From assembly GCA_963575745.1 (NCBI GenBank), contig CAUYUJ010000085.1:1-64000 (forward strand): a stretch of DNA of 64,000 bases, written 5' to 3'. Positions 8,282-39,159 of the stretch are shown here, piece by piece. Source of the stretch: Prorocentrum cordatum. Taxonomy: Eukaryota. Position 1 is the first letter of the stretch. Each line of letters starts with the position of its first letter. Below the pieces are notes generated by a model. That model did no database searches and had not been told where the DNA came from. It saw only the letters and a list, made by a program, of their open reading frames with translations. The position numbers and the translations under genes are program-made.

Positions 8282-8920
8282 TCATCGACGAGACACAGCT
8301 TTTGAGAGCGCTGGTGGATCGGAGGCGGCAATGGCGGTCCAGTGCTTTCCTCCTGGAGCCCTGCCAGCGAGCTCCTGATGCCGCAGGCAAGATCTGCTAC
8401 AAATTTTGCCGTTGGCGAGACACCAGCGCTGCAGCCACGAGAGACAACCTCCATTCCAGGAAACGATACGAGTGCACTTTTTCCACGGCGTCCCGAAGTG
8501 GCACTGATGAAAACGAGCGCTGGAGAAGTCAGAGCCACGCGTCAGGCGGCTCAGACGAGGAGCCATCCACATCAACGATCTGTCTGGTTTTCCAAGAGGG
8601 CTGGCACGCGAAAGCGTCTGCACACGTCGATGAGCCTGCAGGTGTCGAATAACGTGGCGTTACCCAGAGTCAGACGAGCACGCTGAGAGTCAGTGAGCAC
8701 GTCCAGGCCCATGGTGGCCTCTACGCTCCGCAGCGGTTGCCGAGGAAAACGCCGAGCACGAAGCCGGAGCTAATCCACCCCTTGATGAGACGCTCGACAC
8801 ACCGCACCAGTAAATCCCCATGAACACAATACTGAATGTCAATGGTAACGACGCCGTAGCCAGCAGCTCGAAACTTCTTTGAAATCCCTGCCGAGCCTGC
8901 GAACAGCTCCAAAAAGACGC
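8282..8920 (-). pseudogene. C5-cytosine-methyltransferase-like domain, frameshifted
   Basis: VFLELFAGSAGIS (motif I, FxGxG), VTIDI, GDL, FLGNRC (PC position). An alternative frame gives LGNATL..VPALLEN (EN motif), then HQCHFGTPWKKCT. Confidence 0.7.
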
Positions 8921-27000: not shown

Positions 27001-28550
27001 CCCCAGGAGGCCCCAAGAGGCCCCAAGAAGCGCCCAAGACGCGCCAAAGTGGCCTCAAGAGCTCCCTCTCAACCTCTTCCTCCGCCTCCTCCTGATCTTC
27101 CCCGCCATCCTCCCCCAAATGTTCCCTGAAGGGTTTCCACAACGGCTGGGGGAACACATGGTCCGATAGCTTGGGCTCTTGCCACAATGCTCGGCCACAT
27201 GGGCGATTCTAGAAGGCAAGGGGCGGCGGTGATTCGCAGTAGGCATCTTCGATCTGCCGCCCACTGTTGATTCATCACAGGGATGCCTGGCGTGCTGGAT
27301 CCTTTCGGTTTTGGTTTTGGTACTATTTCCACAAGCACTCTCCCCTGGGGTTCCGGCCCAGCCCGCTGGCCACCCGGAAGGACCTAAAAGTGATCGCAAG
27401 ACCGGGTTGCAAAGGGCTTTCTTCTCCATGCGGTTCCGAGATGGCCCACGATGGGCTCCAAGACGGCTACGATGGCCCTCGAGTTTGTCAAAATGGTCCA
27501 AGATGACCTCCAAGACGCCCCGACAAGGCTCACGTTGCCTCCAAGTCCGCCCAAGAAGCTTCGAAAACGGTCCAAGCGGGCCCAAAGAGGCCCCCCAAGA
27601 GGCCCCCAAGACGGCCCAAGAGGCCTCCAAGAGGGCCTCCAGGAAGGCCCGAAGAGGCCAAGTTCATTGATTGCCCTTAGGTCTCAGGTGCTTAAAGGAT
27701 GTTGGCATTTGCTCTTGTTAGGCGTGCCGACGGCCCGAGACGGCCCAAGAGCTCCAAAAGATCGCCCCAAGGCCACCAAGATCGGCCAAGAGGCACCAAG
27801 AAAGACGCCCCAGAAACGCCTCAGAGGCCAAGACCGCCCCAGGAAGGGCTCCAAGACGGGCCGATAGACGTCATTGAATTGAGGGCACATGAAAAGTATG
27901 GTGTGCACAAGAGTATGAGAAGAGGAAGGGAGAGTGGGAGGTGTTATAACAGTGGAACACATGGAGAGGGGCCTGTCATCCAAGGATTAAAGGAAGACGT
28001 CCCTGAAGCGCCCCAAGAGCGGGCCCCCCAGTCTGCCCGCAGATGCCCCCAAGTCCGACGGCGCCAGACGGCCACACAAAAAGGAAAACATATATAACGA
28101 AGAAAAAAAATCAATCACAAAAACTTGCCAGTACCACACGTAACAGGATACTTCCCCGACAAATACATCAGACCAACCAGACCGCCCCAAGATGGCCCAA
28201 GATGGCCAAGACGCGCCCCTGCAGCCCAGATGCCACCCCAGTCACTTCCCACAGCCCTCCGAGAGGTCCTCCAGGAGGCCCCGACGAGGCCAACATCACT
28301 GATGCCCCCCAGGTTGTTGAAGGATTGTGGCAATTGCTCTCGCTATGCCTTCCGACGGCCCAAGAGGGCCCTAGAGGCCACCAACATCGCCCCAGAGCGC
28401 CCAAGAGGCCCCCAAGATGGCCCCAGAACGGCCCATGTTGCCCCCAAGACGGCCCCAAGAGGGCCCAAAGACGGCCCAAGTGGCCTCCAACACGCCCAAG
28501 AAAGTCCCCAAGACGGCCCTGGAGCATTCCAAAAGGGCTCCTAGTCGACA
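24080..28550 (+). repeat. Composite repeat block: CCAAGA-rich modules, ccccgaggc tandem array (26190-26720), 65-bp tandem duplication (25371/25436)
   Basis: Recurrent ggcccaaga/ctccaaga; near-duplicate MQNHWADASGGEAATGGQ frames 65 nt apart. Confidence 0.8.
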
Positions 28551-28555
28551 CAGAC

Positions 28556-29141
28556 TGCTATGGCCCCGCTAGACCCACTGCCCTGAGATCTGCTCTCCTC
28601 CCCTCTATATCTCTATTGTTCTCTCTCTCTCTCGTTCTCTCTTTCTTTTTTTCTTTATTTCTCTCTCTCTCTCTCTCTCTCTTTTTCTCTCTCGAAATGG
28701 CAACGCGTTGGTATCACTGATGCTGGTGGCAAGCGCGAGGGTGCTCGCGCGATTGTGATGAAAGGGAGCTGTTACGGTTGCGGGCCAGCTTGCAATCCTG
28801 CGCCTCGCAGGCGCACGCCAGGAGTCCAGCGACAGTGCGTCGCTGCAAAGGCTTGCGCCAAGTGCCAAGACGTGTTCGGTAGCAACGTCTTGGGAAAACT
28901 TGAAAATACATGATGAGACCCTGGGGCCTGAGGGCTCTACGAGGGCTCTTGGGGATACCACTCAGCATGGCTAGGCTGCAAACGAAGTTTGGAACACGAT
29001 GCCCCGTGAAACGCGGATATGTGTAAACGGGGGCGCCCAGTGAGCCCAGACATGCACGCAGGTGAAAGCTCACACTCGGCCTCCAGAGGCCATCTGCCGC
29101 AAGAAGGCTCTAGTCAGGCAGGCTCCGGGCTGCGAGTTACA
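28556..29141 (-). repeat. 3' LTR
   Basis: Shares ccactgccctgagat, gctgttacggttgcgggccagct, acacgatg..ccgtgaaacgcggatat and ggctctagtcaggcaggctc with 37235-38022; TG...CA ends. Confidence 0.85.
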
Positions 29142-29489
29142 TGCCCAAACATAGGAATCGATGTTGCGACATCGAGGCGCGCCGCTGACCCCTGCATTCA
29201 CTGAAAGCACAAAGCGGGGGCGCGGTCTTACCGAACCCCGCAAGGCCACGTGTCCGGCAGGGCACAACTGCTCGCAGGGATTGTCGCGGGCGAAGTAGAC
29301 GAAGACCTCCAGCATCGCATCTCCGTCATCATCGGACACGGGTTTGCCATGGTCGAGCTTGTCCATGCCTGCGGTCTGGCATTTCCTGGCACTGCGTTGG
29401 AAAGGATCACCCACCAATCTCCAGCGCTGCCCTGCTCTGAAAAAACTTGGTCCAACCGTCGGCTAGCACAGCGTAGTTGCTGTGGACCC

Positions 29490-30900
29490 ACCGCATATGG
29501 AGGGCCGTCAGCTCCAATTGCTGTCGGATGTCAAGACACTCGATCTTCGTTGTTTCATCGCGCAGCCCAAGGCCAGCCGACTCACACTTCTCGATCGCGC
29601 AATAGCCCGATGTCCCGCTTCAGGCTGAGATGGCATCGTTTTCGCGCTGCTCGGAAGTCCACTGGGCCGCACACTAGCTTGCGTATGCAAAACCGCGGGT
29701 TGCTGATCTCGTCCAAAGTCCCAGTCATCATCTGGACCTCCGAAATCTCACTGCTTCTGGCCACGCGAAGCAACTTGCAGGATCTGTATGAAATAGGCGC
29801 CGCAGTCTCCGCCGAACCGCTGAGTAAGGACAACGGGGCCAGAACGGTTGTCCGCCTTGGGACTCGCCGGTCGCTCTCACTGCCCAGGCCGCGTCACCCC
29901 AGCCAACCGCGGCGATCTGGTCGACGGCCGGAATGAGCGCGACCACGTCGGCAGTGTTGCGCATGGTGCAGATCAGCGCGTTAATCGTCTGGATGGTTGA
30001 GACCGCGGCCGTCGGAGTCCTGGCATGGAGCAAAGATACTTATGCACTGAACCACGGGGCCGACTGCTGCGCGCGCCATCCGAGTGCACCAAGTCGGCCT
30101 CGCAGGCCCGATCGCTCCTTACCCGAACCCCCCCCCGTGGGTCTTCGGCCACGTCGTACCTTGTTGGGTTCCACGTTCAGGCTGTAGTTGTCCTGAGCGG
30201 GGCTGCAACTGAAATCGTCTGACTGTCGGATACTGATGCCGCGCTGGACGAAGGCGCGGCTCTCCCAGGGCGTCCACTCTTCTGGATATCCTTACGCTTC
30301 TCGTGGGAGGCCAGGCTCGTCTGGTCAGCAGCGATCATCATATCATCGACGCGTAGGATTACCATGCCAACCAGCTTGTCAACGTCGCAGAAAACCCAGA
30401 AGCAGGGCTCGCACTGAGCAGCCTCCAGCTCGAGCTTCTTGAGCGCGTCTAGGAAGTGGAGCCACCACTTGCGAAGAGCGTGTAAGAATCCGCACACTGG
30501 CTTGAACAACTGCAAGGCCCGGTAGTCGTCCACGCCGAATGCCTGGCGGACATATCCCGGAGGGGCCGCGTAGAGATTACTCTTCTCCTTGTCGGCCTCC
30601 CCCTGGAGGAAGGCCGTCACTGCGTCTGCTTTCTTCAGCTTCCACTTGCGTCAGGCTGCCATGGCCAATAGAAAATGACGCGCCCGTCGCGAAGCGACGG
30701 GGGGCTCCGTCTGGAGGCGGAGCAAGCCGGGGTCGATGAAGCCGAGCATGACCAGTCTAGCCGCGCCTCGGAAAACGCCGCCTTGCCCCAAGCCAAGCCT
30801 CGTTCCAAGTCGAGCCTTGGCCCAGCAAGCCGGGGTCGACGAAGTCGAGCCGTGTTCCAGGTCGGCACGAAGCGGCAGCGAAGGAGGAGCGCTCCTGCTG
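29490..30900 (-). pseudogene. Copia RT + RNase H remnants
   Basis: RT: ARLVMLGFIDP, TAFLQG, LFKPVCGF..RKW, EPC, LRVDD. RNase H: KLLRVARSSEISEVQ. Confidence 0.85.
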
Positions 30901-31849
30901 AGCCTCGAGTAGCAGCTTCTTCTCCTCTGCGGTCGCCTTCTGGATGGAGACCCCCACTCGGCCCTCGCGGGCCTCAGATGCCACGAAGTTGCTGGGGTCG
31001 CACATGTACGCCATGAGCGCGTGCTCGCATTTGAAGGGGATGTCCAGAACGATGAGCTCATTATCCTCCTTGGCCTCATCGCACTACTGGGCGCTGTAAG
31101 CGCGCGCGTAGTCCCCGTAGAAATCTCCCTCCTGCAAGAAGTACAAGAAAGCCACCAGGGTGGTAGCGTCGACCAGTTGCGTCCTGACAGGTGGCCCTGG
31201 CGACCCCGGGGCTTGCCGATGACGCTTGTTGTTGGCATCAGGCGCCGTCGCCTCTTTCAGGTCCTCCTCGTCCGTGTCCACGGTAATACGGCGCCGGGAA
31301 GCGCGACCCCCCTGGTCGTCTATTGGAGGGGCCTCCACGATGATCTCTTCTTCAGGCACTCCAGCTTTTTCGCCGGGCTGACGAAGGCCCGGTGGAACCT
31401 CTGGCGTTGCTGGATGGATAACAAGGTCTGGATCCGCGCTCGCGGCGAGCCAAGGGCTTCCCTTACGTCGCACCCTCCTAGGCAGTTTCGGCCCGAATAT
31501 AAGAAGTCCTTCGAGTCCAGTAGTGGCCGAAGGCAAGCTGCCACCTCCGCCACCTCCTGGCCCAAGGCGCTGAGGTTCTCCCGGGGGGGGGGGCCGTAGA
31601 TCGTTGTCCTCGTCGATTGCCCAAGGCCCGCTCGGATTGCCCGCGAGGGCGCGGGCGCTGACCGACTCGCCGTCGCCCGTTGCAAGGTCCTCGCCTGTCG
31701 GCGGGGGCCCGTTGGACAGGTCAATCATCTCGTTGGCGTCGAGATGCTTCTGGACCTCTCCAAAGGCCCATGTCCCAGGATGCTCGCGGCGCGAGCGCAG
31801 GGGATCCATCGCCTCCTCCGACGGGGTGGCCGGTCGAAGCTGCTCTGGA

Positions 31850-32900
31850 GCCACCAGGTAGGAGGCGACCAGCCAACGCGATGTTGACCAAGGCCCCTGG
31901 CAGGCCAGGTCGATATCCAGAGCTCGCAGGCTCGCGACTCAGAACTGGCCCAGGGCCGCACCAGTGGCATCGCCCCAATATGGAGCGAGACTGCCCTTTC
32001 TTCCGCCGGGCTCCTGGTGGGAGCCGCCTGCGCACGAAGACCAGGTCACCAGTCTCGTACTTTCTGAAGGACCTGGACCTAGGCGCCTCGGCTCGCTCGT
32101 CGCGGTCCGAAAAATTCCGCCTGGATGTGTGCCAGTCTCGACAGTCGTCGTACTTGAGCGTCTCTGCTGAAGGTGCCGTCCAACAGTTCGGTGCTGACGA
32201 GAGGCAGGTTGCGCGGCTCGTCGGACAAGTTGACGGCGGTGCCCGTCGGCGTCCGACCCGCGCACCGTTGAAGCGGGCTGAAACCGTCGATCCGGATCAG
32301 GTCGTTCCTCGCCGCGGTCTCGCCAGTCGGCACCTTGGCAGAGACCGTCTCAGCCAAGGCGTCGAGTGCCTCCTTGAAAGCCTCGGTCGCGCGCTCGATC
32401 TTGCCGATCCGCCAGCGGGCGTCGGCGGCTAAGGAGAGGCAGTAGTTGCCCAGACCCTCGGCCCACTCCCGGGTCGCGGCGCATGGCCTTTGGGCGCCCC
32501 ATCCAGGGGAAGCCACTTTTTAGCGAAGATATGTCGGGGGGTCTCCTGCGCGCACTTGTCGAGTCTGTCCTGGAGCCCCCCTCTCGTCGATCAGCCTCGC
32601 GTAGAGGATGCCGGAGCCAGCGCCAAGGACCGACAGCGCCATCGCGCTCGCGTTCGTACCGCGTCGGGTCCACGAGATGGCCTCGACGAGCACTTCGTGA
32701 CCGTTCTGGGGCTGCTCGACCGATGACGCAGGGGGCCGCGTCGTGGGTCGGTGAGCATCGTAGATGCCGCACTTAAAGTTCAGGGCCAACAGCAGCACCT
32801 TTGGTCTAGCGCCTCGATCTCGACGGTATCGAAGTAGGTGAGCCCGAGGTAGGTGTCCAAGGTTGGCATGGATCAACCTGACGTCGCTCCCGAGCTTATG
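31850..32900 (-). pseudogene. Copia integrase remnant
   Basis: IHANLGHLPR..RGA..NFKC (HHCC finger); core fragments GKIERA..FK and ARNDLIRIDGFSPLQ. Confidence 0.75.
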
Positions 32901-35249
32901 GATCGTCTCGTTGGCGAGGTCGTGGATGCCTCTGCCGTCCTTCCGTCGTCGATCGGCAGGCGGCTGCCGCGTGGCAGCCAGGCAGTGGCAGCGCACAACC
33001 TCATCCTCGAAGTAGTTGGGGTTCTAGCTCTTCGTCAGAGCTCCGAGGGTCTTGCAGCGCAGCGTCTTAGGGTAGTTTCCCGGCGCATCCTTGCGCGGGC
33101 TGCTCTCGATCTCCTTGTGATAATGGTCTCCGCGGCACTGCGCGGGCTGGAGAGTAATCCAGATCCCCTTGTCCTTCGTCTGGAACTTCCAGCGCTTCCT
33201 CATGAGCCCCCCAGCATTTGGAGCTCCGAGTCCACGCGAGAAGCCGTCAACAATGACCTTGGATGGGAGTGCGCTGCGAAGACCCTTCCAGCAGGTCCTC
33301 TGCCGCGAACGGTCGTCGTGGGAGTGCTCTGCGAGGGCCAAGCCGCGCGCGTTTAGAGCCCGATGTTCGCGTGCCATTACTTAAGATCACGTGGCGCTTA
33401 GCCCTCTTCTTGCGAAGGTAGCTATCCTGCTGCTCGTTGCGCTGGTTGACGTGCTGCGTAATCGACCAAGGCCCGTCCGCAGGGTGGAGCGCTGACGCAG
33501 ATCTCTGGGCGCTTCTCGCCAAGTAGGAACTTCGCCTTGCGATCGCTCGCAACGGTAGCCTTTCTTGTTGCACACCTGGCCAAGGTTCGAGCCCAGGTGG
33601 GCGCGGGCCTCCACCGCCGCCAAGCGGCCGGAAGACGCGAGGGAGCACATGGCCCCGAACAGAGCCGATATTGTCGAGCGGGCAGCTGCCCAGATAGCCC
33701 GACGCCGATGACCCGTCAAAGGGCGGCTGCCGTCGCCGAGCCAGCGCGTCCCCCTGCACCGCGCGTCGCCCAGGCCTCCTGAGTCGCGCGCGCTCGGCGG
33801 CGCCACCCGCGGGGCCTCACCTTCGCGATTGGCTCGCGCATTGCGACGCCCCCTCTGCAAGCAACGAGGGCGCTGGCACTCCTGAGCGCAATGGGCCGCG
33901 ATGGCCGGCTCCGCGACTGCGGAAGCCGCCTCCATCTCTTTGATCTCCACCCCCTTCTTGATCTTGATCGCCGGGGCCGCCGCCCCGCGCTGCTCGATTA
34001 CGGGCGCGATGGCGCGGTCGATCACCTCCTCCTTGTTCCCTGCATGGACCAGCCCCCAGCTCCTGCGCAGGGGCCTGAGGTGGTTGGGCATCGTGACGAT
34101 GCTGCGCTGCTCGCGAATCTGCTCCGAGCTGAGCGCCGCCGACGCAGTCAGCTCCGCAACTTGGTCAAGAAATCTGACTTTGCGCTCTCGATGGCGTCGC
34201 GCAACTTCCTGTTCTGCTGGATCGGCGCGGCCGAGGCGGCCGACTCCTTTGCCTCCCGGCGCGACGGACTGCGAGTCTCGAGCTTCGCCTGATGTCCAAG
34301 CTCCGCCGGTCAGGTCGGGCACCGAGTGGGCAGCAGCTGCACCAGCAGGTCGACGCTGCCCAGCTTCCACTTCTCGAGATACACTGTCTTCAAGAAGGTC
34401 TCTAGCATGAGTCGCGCCGGCGGCGCGTCGCCCTCGATAGCAGCTTCTCGCAGACCCACATCTCCCAGAAAGGTAGGTGCTCCAGTAAGAACATCTCCGA
34501 CAGCCGCGTCATGTCCCTGCCCTGCTCTGGGCCCGCAGGTGGCAGCCCCCCCCGCGCCCGCGGCTCCATCTCCTCGTTGTCTCTCCACTTGCTGGCCCTC
34601 TGCTTTGAAGCATATCGTCTCGCGGTTGAGGCTCGCGCAGAGATGGGAGATATGAAGACTGCTGAGAACTGAGCTCCTCGCTCGACTCGTTTGCGCCGAA
34701 ACTGGCGATGGAACATGATGGCGCCGCGGCCCGGTGCTTGATCAGCGCGGGGACCTCGGGAACGACCTCAGGAGGTTGACCAGGCCATGGCCTTTAGCGG
34801 GCCGGAGTTGGTGACAATGATGCCTGGGGAGCAGGTAAAAATCATGTCGCCGCAGGCGCGGGCAATGATGACATGCCCGCGGGCGCGGGCAACGACGATG
34901 TCCCCGCAGCTGTAGGCGCTGACGATGCCCCTGTGGCTGCGGGCAACGATGTCCGGGGGCCTGGCGGGGCCCCAATTGCGGGGGTCTCATCTGGGAGCGC
35001 TTGGGGGGCATCGGCAGGAGCACCTGGGCGTTCGCTGTCAATCGGCTGCTTGTTCTCGCATTTTCCCTCCTGCACCGGAGCAGTCTCGGGCGTCGGGGGC
35101 GCGCGCCCCCAGCTGAGGATGGCCACGAAGCGGCAAGTCGGCATGCGATGCAAGTGGCTGCGCAGGGTGGCCGCTCGGAAGGGCGAGCAGCCGCGCTCGG
35201 CGCCCGAGCTTCTCGAAGTAAGCAGCGCGCGCCGCGCAGTCGATCGCGG

Positions 35250-37175
35250 CTCCCGGGCGGCTCGAGACACCACCCCAACTCAGCAGCGGAGCGTCGGCGC
35301 CCAGGATGTCGGTCTCGAGCTCGCCCTCCGCGCCGGCTATCTCCAGCGGAAAGGTGGCCTTGCCGTTGCAGGTCTCGGAGTTGACGTCGCCGAAGATTTA
35401 AGGTTGACTTCTGGCCGACGATAATATTGACGTTCCTGCCTGTCTGCTCATAGACGGTGCCTGGCAGCTTCTCGGCGGCCTATATGCCCGCGATGCTGGA
35501 GGCAGCGCCGATGTCCAGAATGCCGGAGCCCTCGGAGCCAGACTGCTTCACGCCCGTGCGCATCCACTCTTCGCCCTGCTCCAAGGTCACCCAGACGGGC
35601 GAGGTCACCAGACGATCAGAACGCGGATCCCGGTCGAGGTATCGTAGATCGCCTCGTCGCGCCCGGTCAGATGGGCCCCCATCTCCGCGCCTCGCTGAGC
35701 GCTGAAGAAGTCGAAGCTCGAGAAAGCCTTCTTCGGTCGATCTCGACCCCCTCGGCTGCCGGCGGATGAAACTCGGTCTCGGTGGTCTTTCGTATTACCT
35801 CCACATTTCAAGCGCAGGCCCTTCTATGCGGGACGCGAGCGGTCACTACTCTTGGAACTCGGTCGATCACGTCGCTGTCCGTCGACGCGCCCTCGCCCCG
35901 TGGAAAACCAAGAGCCTCGGGATGCCATTCGAGGTCCATGGGGCTTCTCGTCGCGCGGGCTGCGCATCCACTGGGAAGGAAGTCCTCGCCGTCTTCACTC
36001 GACGAAGCAGGTCCCGAGCCTGCTCGAACCAAAAAAACAATAAAAAAAAGAAAAAAAGCAAAAAAAAAAAACAACGACAAAATAAGGAAAAAAAAAAAAA
36101 AAACAAAAAAAAAAAAAAAAAAAAAAAAACCAAAAATAAAAATAATAAAAAAAAAAAAAAAAACCAAAAAAAGCTGCGCTGCTGAGCTGCGAAGGCGGTC
36201 TCGGCCTCCTCTATCGCTGGGTAGAGGGGCTCCTCGGGATCTTTGGATCTTCCTCCGGCTGGGTATCGTAGGACGTGTTCGAATCGTCGTAGTAGCCATA
36301 GCCATGCTGAACTTCATCTTCGTCATCTTCCTGATCCCCGCCGGCCCGGACCCTGCCACGATCCGGGCGGCAGTGATCTTTGCCCTGGTTATTGTCGCGA
36401 TTCGTCGAGTCGCCATCTGGCCAGGATACTCGAAACTGCTCCGAAGCTCTCGCAGTCGAGGTTACCCTCCACAACACTGATCACTGCTGCACGCTCGGTC
36501 GGGGACAGTCTGGATCTTTGCAGCAGTAACCACCCACGGAGCTGGTCGATGGGGAACCGCCCGGTTAAAATCGGTTCCGAAATCGGCATGCTCCAGAATT
36601 TCCTGGAGCCCCGTCCTGATGAAGCTCCAGAGCTTGAGGTTCAGCTCTCTCGCTTTGTCGGCAGGAGTCCTCGGGGCCCTCGAGCAAGATCTCATGGAGG
36701 AATCAATGCATCTCTGTGTAGACGTCGTTCCAATCCGTCGCCCGTTTGGCGAGACGCTGATGTCTCTGTTTCTCGAAATATTCGGTGGCAAATCCGTTGA
36801 CCAAGTCGTGATAGGTTTCGTAATCGCGGCGGACAAAGGACGGCATAACAAGAGTCGCGTCGTAGATCGAATACCAATCTGGCCAAATACTTCCCAGCGT
36901 CCTGGATGGGCTGCGCTCCGAGCATTGCGCGGACGTGTCTGGGCAACTCAATGGCGCCATCGTCCTTCTAGATGCGGTCCCAATCAACGTGCATGGCGGC
37001 CTGTCTAGCTCGTCGCCCGAGTCGTCTCCAGAGTCTGTGGCCGAACACATTTCGTTTGTCACGCCTGGTCCCGCGGATAGAGGCCTTGGCGTCTCGCTCG
37101 TAATCGCTCACCTTGGTGAAGTCTCCGTTCCACTCCAATACAATGTCATCTCCAATGCTGCGTTTCGCCATTGTG
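35250..37175 (-). pseudogene. Copia gag + aspartic protease remnants
   Basis: VLEWNGDF..GHRLWRRLG, QLRGWLLLQRSRLSPTERAAV, degenerate knuckle KCGG..DH, protease GILDIGA at ~35505-35525. Confidence 0.65.
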
Positions 37176-37221
37176 TCGTAGCACGCTGTGCTCCGTGAAT
37201 ATGTTGCCCATGGAGCTTCAC

Positions 37222-37234
37222 AGCTCCGCAACCA
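37222..37234 (-). promoter_or_regulatory. Primer-binding site TGGTTGCGGAGCT
   Basis: TGG (complement of tRNA CCA) lies immediately inside the 5' LTR. Confidence 0.7.
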
Positions 37235-38022
37235 TGCAATGGCGCTGCTAGAACCACTGCCCTGAGATGAATCCCTGGATATTGGTCTCTCTCTTCTCTC
37301 TCTCTCTCTCGCCTCTCGAGGTTTCGATAACACTGATGTTGGTGTCGGGGATGTACGGGCAATGGGAAGCACGAGGCTGCTCGCGCGATGGTGATGAAAA
37401 GGGGCTGTTACGGTTGCGGGCCAGCTCGCAATCCTGCGCGTCACAGGCGCGCACCATGAATCCAGCGACTACTCTGTCGCTCAAAGGCTTGAAACCAAGG
37501 CGTTTCAAAAGAAACGAGCTGGGGACACCTTGAACAATCGTGGGGATGAGCCTCTGGGGCCCGATGGCTCTACCCCGCCCGGGGGGAGACCATCAAAGAA
37601 AAAATCAAAAAAAAATCAAAAAAAAAATAGAAGAAAGAAAAAAAAAAAACATAAAGAGCAAGCAAACAAATAAAAAAAAAATGACGAGAAATAAAAAAAC
37701 AGAAAAAACCAAAACCAAAAAAAAAAAAAATAATTGAAAAAAAAAAAAAAAACAAAAAAACAAAATCAAAAAAAACTTAAGAGAAAGCAAAACTAAATAA
37801 AAAAAAAAAAACAAAAAGAAAAAAATGAGTATGAGTGCATGACCTAACTACACACACACGGAATTCGAAACACGATGCGCCGTGAAACGCGGATATATGT
37901 AAACCGGGGTCCCTTGTGAACGCAGACATGTATGCAGGTGTAAGCTCACACTCGGCATCTAGAGGCCATCTGTTGTGTAGTAAGGAGGCTCTAGTCAGGC
38001 AGGCTCTGGGCTGTACGTTGCA
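37235..38022 (-). repeat. 5' LTR (contains an extra ~230-nt A-rich stretch)
   Basis: Homologous to 28556-29141; TG...CA ends. Confidence 0.85.
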
Positions 38023-39159
38023 CAGCGAGGCCCCCGAAACACTTCCCGACGGAACCAGACGGGCCAGGAGCCCACCAAGACGGCCCCAAATGGCTCTAAG
38101 ATGGCCCAAGACGGCTCCCAAGAGGCCTCCAAAACGGCCCACGAGGCTCTCCAGGAAGGCCCGAAGATGCCAAATGCATCGATTTCCCTCCGGTTTTCGG
38201 GAGATATGTTTGCTTCGGTCGGCCTTCCGACGGCCCGAGACGGCCCAAGAGCCCCGAAAGATCGCCCAAGAGGCCTCCAGGACGGCCCCAGAACAGCCCA
38301 AGAAGCCTCCAAGACGGCCCCAAGAGGGCCGCAGAAGGCCCAAAAGGCCTCCAAGACGCCCAAGATGGCCTCAAAGACGTCCCTCGAGTCAAGTCGGCCC
38401 AGAAAAGCCCCAAAGACGGCTTCCGACGGCGTCGGACGTGCCAGGAATGCCCTGAGACCCCGAGAAGCCCCCAAAGGCCCTCAAAATGCACAACGAGGCC
38501 CCCCAAGATGCCTCCAAGAGGCTCTCAGGAAACTCCCAGGAGGAGGCGCCAAGAGTGCCCCCAGAGGCTCCCAAGATGCTTCCTCCTCCTCCTCCTGCTC
38601 CTCCTCCTCCTCCTCCTCCTCCTCCTCCCCTCCTCCTCCTTCTATTCTTCCTCCTCCTCCTCCTCCTCCTCCTTCTATCCTCCTCCTTCTGCTCCTCCTC
38701 CTCCTCCTTCTCCTCCTCCTCCTGATCTTCCCCGCCGTCCTCCCCGACGTGTTCCCCGAAGGGTTCCCCCACCTGTTGGGGGAACAAATGGCCTGGTGTG
38801 TTGGCAGAGCACTGGCCACAACGCTCAGACGCATGGGCGATTCCAAGCCGCTTGCTCCCCCAAGCGTTCCCCGAAGGCTTTCCCTACCGACTCGGGGAAC
38901 AATTGGCCCGATAGCTTGGCCAAGCTCTAGCCCAGCTGTCGGCCACATCAGCGCTTCCACAAGGGCAGGGCGCGGCGGCGATTCGCCGTGCGCGTCGTCG
39001 ATAACGCCAACGTCTCAATACGCGCTGATGGTTCCAATCCGCCCCCGCATGATGTTCGCAGATGCGCCGAGACAGCGCCGAGACGCACCGACGCGACCCT
39101 GATCTACCCCATTAGGATAGAGAGGGGGCCGGCGGCAGGGGGCGAAGCCCTTACGAATA

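Follow-up and report, generated by a model that had tools for sequence, protein, structure and literature searches.

Retrotransposon-borne DNA methyltransferases have been described as SymbioDIRS-Dnmt3, SymbioLINE-Dnmt and KnitGypsy-Dnmt3 (de Mendoza et al. 2018, PMC5890265). According to the available text of that paper, SymbioDIRS-Dnmt3 lies in Pol and methylates CG in yeast, with no CG depletion, while Copia 'lacks any DNMT domain', the search profile being PF00145; no other class of retrotransposon is as abundant in the genomes of Symbiodinium. Symbiodinium copia was described with integrase, reverse transcriptase (RT) and RNase H only in the part of PMC5776459 that is available. One sentence in the available text of PMC12344493 places DNMT3 members in 'LTR Copia and DIRS' elements, citing de Mendoza 2018; it concerns Dnmt3 and not the copia domain analysed here, and its cited source, in its available text, reports Gypsy and DIRS. 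The EpiLTRs and DAM-LTRs (bioRxiv 10.64898/2026.05.21.726589, partial text) share with the present element that they are LTR retrotransposons with prokaryotic- or viral-type methyltransferases, but they are Ty3/Gypsy-like, come from green algae and Euglena, and carry a DNMT that is sister to DNMT4, whereas the host here is copia. The same partial text names SymbioDIRS, SymbioLINE, Gypsy and EpiLTR cases and no copia case. Nothing on the copia domain was found in the available parts of PMC9998398, PMC10449503 and PMC11453091, and no description of a copia methylase-fold domain was found in searches of the main text of openly available full-text papers.

The window, a stretch of 64,000 nucleotides from Prorocentrum cordatum, carries a Ty1/copia element with gag, protease, integrase, RT and RNase H between decayed LTRs. 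NCBI labels the nearest proteins in the database Prorocentrum cordatum, and a dinoflagellate host is accordingly assumed. The order protease, integrase, RT, RNase H and an RT of RVT_2 type were both found. The features are as follows.

37235..38022, minus strand, 5' LTR, decayed, ending in CCATTGCA, then the primer-site-like TGGTTGCGGAGC
36226..37150, minus strand, gag region (tblastn)
35134..35608, minus strand, protease region with DIGA motif, end of the gag-protease ORF
33861..34666, minus strand, remnant of an overlapping ORF that uses a second frame of the Pol linker; the intact ORF has 361 aa
33030..33625, minus strand, remnant of the C5-methyltransferase-fold domain (alignment to intact copy L025; 4 indels)
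33582..33614, minus strand, motif I position with altered SAM loop, VEARAHLGSNL (VEACTHEDSNL in intact copies)
33479..33493, minus strand, motif IV SAPPC with the predicted catalytic Cys, then a 4-nt insertion
33321..33332, minus strand, motif VI position, AEHS with the conserved Glu (AEQP in intact copies)
33189..33197, minus strand, motif VIII position, K-x-W replacing R-x-R
33069..33137, minus strand, C...H..H and Y-P motifs, end of the domain
32226..32900, minus strand, integrase, directly downstream of the domain (own integrase profile, E 3.5e-45)
30169..30907, minus strand, RT of copia type, frameshifted (RVT_2, E 1.5e-23 in intact copy L034)
29416..29850, minus strand, RNase H region (tblastn of intact Pol)
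28556..29141, minus strand, 3' LTR, decayed, 75-82% identical to the 5' LTR
8282..8920, minus strand, short C5-methylase-fold domain of a DIRS-like element, broken here and intact elsewhere, with ELFAG and ENP kept

Positions 33650-33003 aligned with the intact sister domain L025 at E 9e-53 (tblastn), the next unrelated match in the window being only at E 0.46. The peptides quoted in the preliminary description were recovered on the minus strand within 33030-33640, in two frames; 'LHPAD', quoted there, is out-of-frame text, and the true PC motif is SAPPC in the neighbouring frame at 33493-33479. The domain had been placed between protease and integrase, and it does adjoin the integrase (which starts at 32900), but it lies about 1.5 kb from the protease end (35134), with a dual-coding linker between the two. 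A 44-nt deletion at 33543 removed residues 36-51, the motif II-III region, and it is joined by the 4-nt insertion at 33479, 3' of the Cys codon, a 7-nt deletion near 33382, a 1-nt deletion near 33370 and a stop codon near 33023 immediately beyond the domain. The copy is old, as its LTRs are only 75-82% alike, and it is dead, while intact relatives exist elsewhere in the genome. The segment has 41 DNA matches there, itself included; six are near-identical copies with the same breaks, and the others have 68-74% identity and are in many cases intact. When L025 was the query, the domain was free of stops in 28 of the 30 best matches, so the refuting condition that the segment be missing from other family members does not hold.

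The six copies at 99-100% identity were considered as a sign of recent activity, a reading that was rejected because they share breaks and flanks and lie inside a large duplicated block. Decayed copia and DIRS copies recur together with their flanks at 99% identity (window 28188-38597; G000:C85, C1521, C2506, C5651 and C6038), and in C85, C1521 and C2506 the recurrences are approximately 60 kb apart, which indicates a large block duplicated tandemly or segmentally.

Intact copies were found in 9 of 18 fetched stretches of 6-10 kb, each with a 685-aa gag-protease ORF and a Pol ORF of 2062-2133 aa in which linker, methylase-fold domain, integrase, RT and RNase H follow one another in one open frame. 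The LTRs of intact copies are 487-535 bp long, about 488 bp in this family, with TG...CA ends and 94-100% identity, and an exact 5-bp target duplication was present in 8 of 9 family-A copies with resolved ends. These findings show that the family is Ty1/copia with young members. No RNA holder of the element was listed, a result without bearing on its expression. In all nine of these copies the flanks (L034-L045) are low-complexity DNA with C-runs or G-runs, and two copies share one site; this is possibly a target preference of family A. Two family-A copies, L031 and L032, stand head to tail 7.4 kb apart at G000:C15567 104400-124399, with 99% shared sequence.

Gag-protease and Pol are in the same frame with one stop between them in L034 (2805-2807), L085 (2786-2788) and L167 (3030-3032). 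The stop is TAG followed by GGG in all seven family-A copies inspected and TGA followed by GGG in L085, and a single in-frame stop after the protease suggests stop-codon readthrough. In other families (L080, L163, L164), gag-protease-Pol is one uninterrupted ORF. The Pol linker ahead of the methylase domain is dual-coding (L034 3262-4344, L080 3239-4171, L085 3027-4199, window 33861-34666). Purifying selection acts on the overlapping ORF (311-391 aa) when it is read in its own frame, with median dN/dS of 0.30, 0.36 and 0.53, and the Pol frame is open throughout with dN/dS of 0.8-1.2; for the family of the window element the values are 0.30 in the own frame compared to 1.2 in the Pol frame. No likeness among the linker ORFs of the three families was evident by eye. 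The family-A linker ORF gave a weak, sub-threshold SAP-like match in Pfam and no match in the ESM Atlas.

In young sister copies with LTRs, the intact domain is approximately 215 aa long and shares one open reading frame with integrase, RT and RNase H. An AlphaFold model built from 85 sequences reached pLDDT 93.8 and pTM 0.90. Among the matches listed by Foldseek against the PDB, 33 of 34 rows were C5 methyltransferases, DNMT3, Dnmt2, DNMT1 and MET1 among them, with a best E of 1e-4. In the VIA comparison, which covered folds within Foldseek's top 1000, all 50 rows were C5 methyltransferases and the alignment spanned motif I to the last helix, with Z 12.5, 186 aligned residues and rmsd 4.1 for DNMT3A and Z 11.5, 190 aligned residues and rmsd 3.9 for M.HhaI; TM-scores of the structural matches were moderate (0.4-0.58). 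The domain is thus predicted to have a cytosine-C5 methyltransferase fold, which upholds, on the modelled intact copies, both the proposed cytosine-methyltransferase-like domain in a copia element and the expected Rossmann/C5-MTase similarity. The 185-190 residues aligned with M.HhaI and with the catalytic domain of DNMT3A/3B run from motif I to the last helix at 9-14% identity, but the copia domain is without the large target-recognition domain, FxGxG and R-x-R.

A PF00145 match was not found in the intact domain or in long relatives. The domain sequence had no match in Pfam or the PDB, as a single sequence or as a profile, and the intact domain had no Pfam family at E 1; PF00145 was detected in 0 of 31 long relatives at E 0.01 and was not among the 25 families listed, of 45, for 85 members. 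Across the 1.84 billion representatives searched, relatives formed 1662 clusters at E 0.001. The clusters found in the ESM Atlas carried no names, a viral PF00145 cluster at 0.88 serving as a lead.

The best viral model matches were methylase-like proteins of 210-218 aa (Foldseek, E 9e-9 to 3e-6), including those of phage P087 and Tetraselmis virus 1. These short viral methylases (PHROG 757, Lactococcus phage P087 C3U2K5, Tetraselmis virus 1 A0A2P0VN45) are the best structural matches for the copia and DIRS domains alike. They share with the copia domain a size of 210-240 aa, the motif order, C-x-x-G before K-[PA]-T and C...H before the closing helix. They are stand-alone proteins, methylases by annotation, that keep ELFAG, the motif II Asp and ENP, whereas fusion in Pol, K-x-W, Y-P and a changed loop set the copia domain apart. 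The copia profile matched the stand-alone PHROG 757-type protein P0256 at 94% probability (HHalign); direct PHROG 757 matches were weak for the copia domain (L169 E 0.0024, L163 E 0.025, L025 none) and clear for the DIRS-type domain (E 1e-6). The HHalign and Foldseek matches point to a probable kinship of the copia domain with this viral class, and a viral origin is likely. No match to the DIRS-type or copia domain was found in GenBank phages (tblastn), and a scan of viral contigs found no relative of the domain.

The DIRS domain of the window had been pointed out for its parallel order of motifs at 8282-8920, and that parallel reflects true homology: HHalign gave 94% and 98% for the copia profile against the DIRS domain in its intact form. 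The first structural matches of the DIRS model are the same three viral proteins as those of the copia domain. The DIRS-type methylase, with at least 150 matches listed among 11,319 candidates (L108, L110 and L189-L204 among the examples), sits at the C-terminal end of the RT ORF with ELFAG, PC and ENP intact. It matched PF00145 at E 0.71 only and is not of Dnmt3 type. A DIRS identity of the carrier elements is suggested by weak RVT_1 matches and a recombinase motif. The copia and DIRS domains are homologous and both probably of the short viral type; neither belongs to the Dnmt3 or LINE types that have been published, so that the window DIRS domain differs from SymbioDIRS-Dnmt3. From its sequence, the DIRS-type methylase may represent an undescribed DIRS methylase class and be the better candidate for an active enzyme. 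The claim that two retroelement classes carry their own DNA-marking enzyme stands in so far as homologous domains occur in copia and DIRS; the marking role is one that we infer, because the copia SAM-binding loop is non-canonical.

The domain was covered by 109 of 169 proteins, and 96 rows were left after removal of close copies, the motifs being named after those of M.HhaI. The motif I Glu (E14), the motif IV Cys (C72) and the motif VI Glu (E124) were invariant (96/96 rows), as were G152, C188 and Y209, at approximately 30% identity; K168 was found in 98%, H194 in 97%, W170, W132 and S21 in 96% and D44 in 93% of the rows. A few single copies in other copia branches deviate at the motif IV Cys or the motif VI Glu. 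Conservation of catalytic and cofactor-position residues at this level of identity indicates that both sites are held. The preliminary description had asked for PC and ENP/ENV in intact copies; the Cys and Glu are there in every row, but the Pro preceding the Cys was found in 68% and motif VI reads AEQP. C...H..H together with the Cys of DGC is a possible metal site, as judged from the motifs.

In the sub-lineage of the window element the FxGxG SAM loop is replaced by C-[CAT]-x-x-D-S, within a new conserved motif that reads in full E-x-C-[CAT]-x-x-D-S-x-L; at position 16, 79% of the 96 rows have Cys and 16% have Ala, and none has Phe. Motif II has R-x-G instead of an acidic residue, and motif VIII is K-x-W (K 98%, W 96%) rather than R-x-R. 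Near-canonical loops occur in other copia branches (ELFAG in P0242, EVYAG in L180, QLFCG in L161), next to further forms such as ELFSPP and ELFTW. ELFAG, the motif II Asp and ENP are all retained in the DIRS and viral domains, which have K-x-T in place of R-x-R. In the methylase tree 19 of the 26 copia rows, those with the altered loop, form a derived group (support 89/97). On the predicted model, the catalytic-domain fold with motifs in canonical order is that of the PF00145 class, and the domain would act like a retrotransposon-borne C5 methyltransferase, yet it departs from the canonical family in the motif I FxGxG, the motif II acid, the motif VIII R-x-R and the Pfam score.

The median pairwise dN/dS of the domain was 0.05, 0.09 and 0.09 in three families (12, 10 and 6 copies), compared to 0.06, 0.08 and 0.09 for RT and 0.03, 0.08 and 0.06 for integrase in the same families; the pairs are non-independent, and the pattern repeats in each family. 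The domain is therefore under purifying selection equal to that on RT and near that on integrase. The 14 carrier families and the 6 non-carriers hardly differed in CpG observed/expected (0.95 and 0.94, p 0.55), the carriers showing no depletion, and the ratio of CpG to non-CpG transitions was not higher in carriers (1.07-1.52) than in non-carriers (1.50-1.74). The CpG test is weak, since the published active DIRS enzyme likewise left no CG depletion. Small differences in GC, GG and CT dinucleotides between carriers and non-carriers are distrusted because the families are related and 32 tests were made.

The domain was found by profile search in 25 of 40 copia elements chosen by RT among 150 listed RVT_2 matches for variety and long frames, the window family excluded, and it was upstream of RT every time. 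The other 15 were without it, also with filters off, and one of these, L172, ends at integrase. Non-carriers also have long open frames and near-identical copies, so that the domain seems unnecessary for mobility. Among the best 150 representatives, integrase followed the domain in 45 of 50 proteins with at least 200 aa beyond it, at a distance of 23-95 aa in 42 of the 45, and RT was downstream in all seven of sufficient length. A Durusdinium trenchii protein (CAK9061435.1) has the domain, integrase and part of RT in that order, which extends the domain to coral symbionts. The carrier polyprotein P0239, whose cluster has 473 members, additionally contains a dUTPase domain (Pfam E 1e-13).

In an RT tree of 52 rows (46 carriers and 6 non-carriers, near-copies merged at 80%), whose database rows were chosen by the domain, a single change accounts for the carrier label (support 77/83, 80% of bootstrap trees) and carriers occupy one side. 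Judged from these sequences, one old capture of the domain, common to a large copia clade, is likely. The capture by a copia lineage that had been proposed is thus retained as to a domain in Pol, and moved back in time and beyond this lineage. L166 and L169 group with L150/L160 in the RT tree (100/98) and with the altered-loop clade in the methylase tree, which may reflect an exchange of the domain among copia lineages. DIRS comes out as a single clade (100/100) in the methylase tree, and the branching at its base among DIRS, L163/L164 and the other copia gives no direction of transfer between DIRS and copia.

Compared with the systems described earlier (PMC5890265, available text), the element shares a C5-methyltransferase domain on a dinoflagellate retrotransposon and RT-like purifying selection with SymbioDIRS-Dnmt3, SymbioLINE-Dnmt and KnitGypsy-Dnmt3, and a position in Pol with the DIRS and Gypsy cases. 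It differs by its Ty1/copia host and by a short, non-Dnmt3 domain that is invisible to PF00145 and has an altered motif I in the sub-lineage. The copia host and the lack of a PF00145 match place it outside SymbioDIRS-Dnmt3 and SymbioLINE-Dnmt.

The window holds a dead copy of a compact domain with a predicted C5-methyltransferase fold, and we consider it slightly better than an even chance that the domain, in intact elements, methylates cytosines in the element's new DNA copy. As part of Pol, the domain would be packaged into the particle with RT and integrase and would meet the cDNA there. The invariant Cys would attack cytosine C6, assisted by the invariant Glu, with SAM bound in a remodelled pocket; the substrate would be the cDNA or the integration site, and the new copy would enter a heavily methylated genome already marked. 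An enzymatic role is suggested by the invariant catalytic residues, the held cofactor-side residues and the RT-level selection. On the model and by analogy, methyl transfer in the altered-loop sub-lineage is likely, and is placed no higher because the FxGxG SAM loop is replaced. The total of approximately 215 aa, without a target-recognition domain of the usual size, is a point against methylation, and for the short viral class a full-text literature search found no biochemical data.

The Cys could still attack pyrimidine C6 in another chemistry, with a different cofactor or by SAM-free deamination or hydroxymethyl addition or removal, which we regard as unlikely. C5 methyltransferases have SAM-free side reactions, and the Cys and Glu stayed invariant while the cofactor loop became a new conserved motif, with R-x-G at motif II, in a derived clade (19 rows, support 89/97) that has no CpG footprint. 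Against this, conservation of the motif I Glu, motif III Asp and closing helix is the same as in relatives that use SAM, and the differences in the loop between copia branches (FAG, YAG, FCG, FSPP, FTW, CC) look like tolerant-loop drift. Such chemistry, if true, would be relevant in genomes rich in 5-hydroxymethyluracil. That the main dinoflagellate copia clade has a SAM-loop-swapped enzyme writing or erasing a non-5mC pyrimidine mark on element DNA is equally doubtful, and if true would give abundant transposons a base-modifying chemistry of their own.

Somewhat less probable is a non-catalytic role, in which the domain would flip out or clamp a cytosine and hold the integration complex at particular DNA. 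Its position 23-95 aa ahead of integrase in 42 of 45 proteins, the altered SAM loop and the C or G runs flanking all nine resolved family-A copies, two of which share one site, would fit. Insertion is steered by chromodomains and reportedly by an arthropod copia MBD (PMC6673714), which would be a precedent, but a nucleophile Cys invariant at approximately 30% identity is unexpected of a pure binder; DNMT3L has lost its catalytic motif. An SAM-dependent, Dnmt2-like RNA methyltransferase with the primer tRNA or the genomic RNA of the element as its substrate in the particle is quite improbable: the nearest relatives are stand-alone proteins of DNA viruses annotated as DNA methyltransferases, and VIA was led by DNMT3 and M.HhaI with Dnmt2 in 0 of 50 rows, against Dnmt2 structures at Foldseek ranks 5, 9 and 10, no DNA footprint, and RNA methylation having been raised for SymbioLINE-Dnmt by de Mendoza et al. 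(PMC5890265, in its available text). Chance resemblance or a neutral passenger in a decayed element, suggested by the dead window copy and the absence of a Pfam or PDB sequence match, is hardly credible and is refuted by the whole-domain structural match in VIA and dN/dS <0.1, beside a chain of profile matches to PHROG 757-type methylases.

The domain as modelled is well supported in fold and selection, and cytosine methylation is its putative function by analogy. Copia was the DNMT-free contrast in the available text of the paper that defined retrotransposon DNMTs (PMC5890265). If many copia and some DIRS-like elements carry a Pfam-invisible methylase fold, dinoflagellate DNMT counts are too low, the contrast needs redoing, and the domain would be a new candidate source for the unusual dinoflagellate methylome. 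Intact copies offer a small domain to which the published assay of methylation in yeast can be applied directly, and the natural series of loop variants could show how far a SAM pocket can drift.
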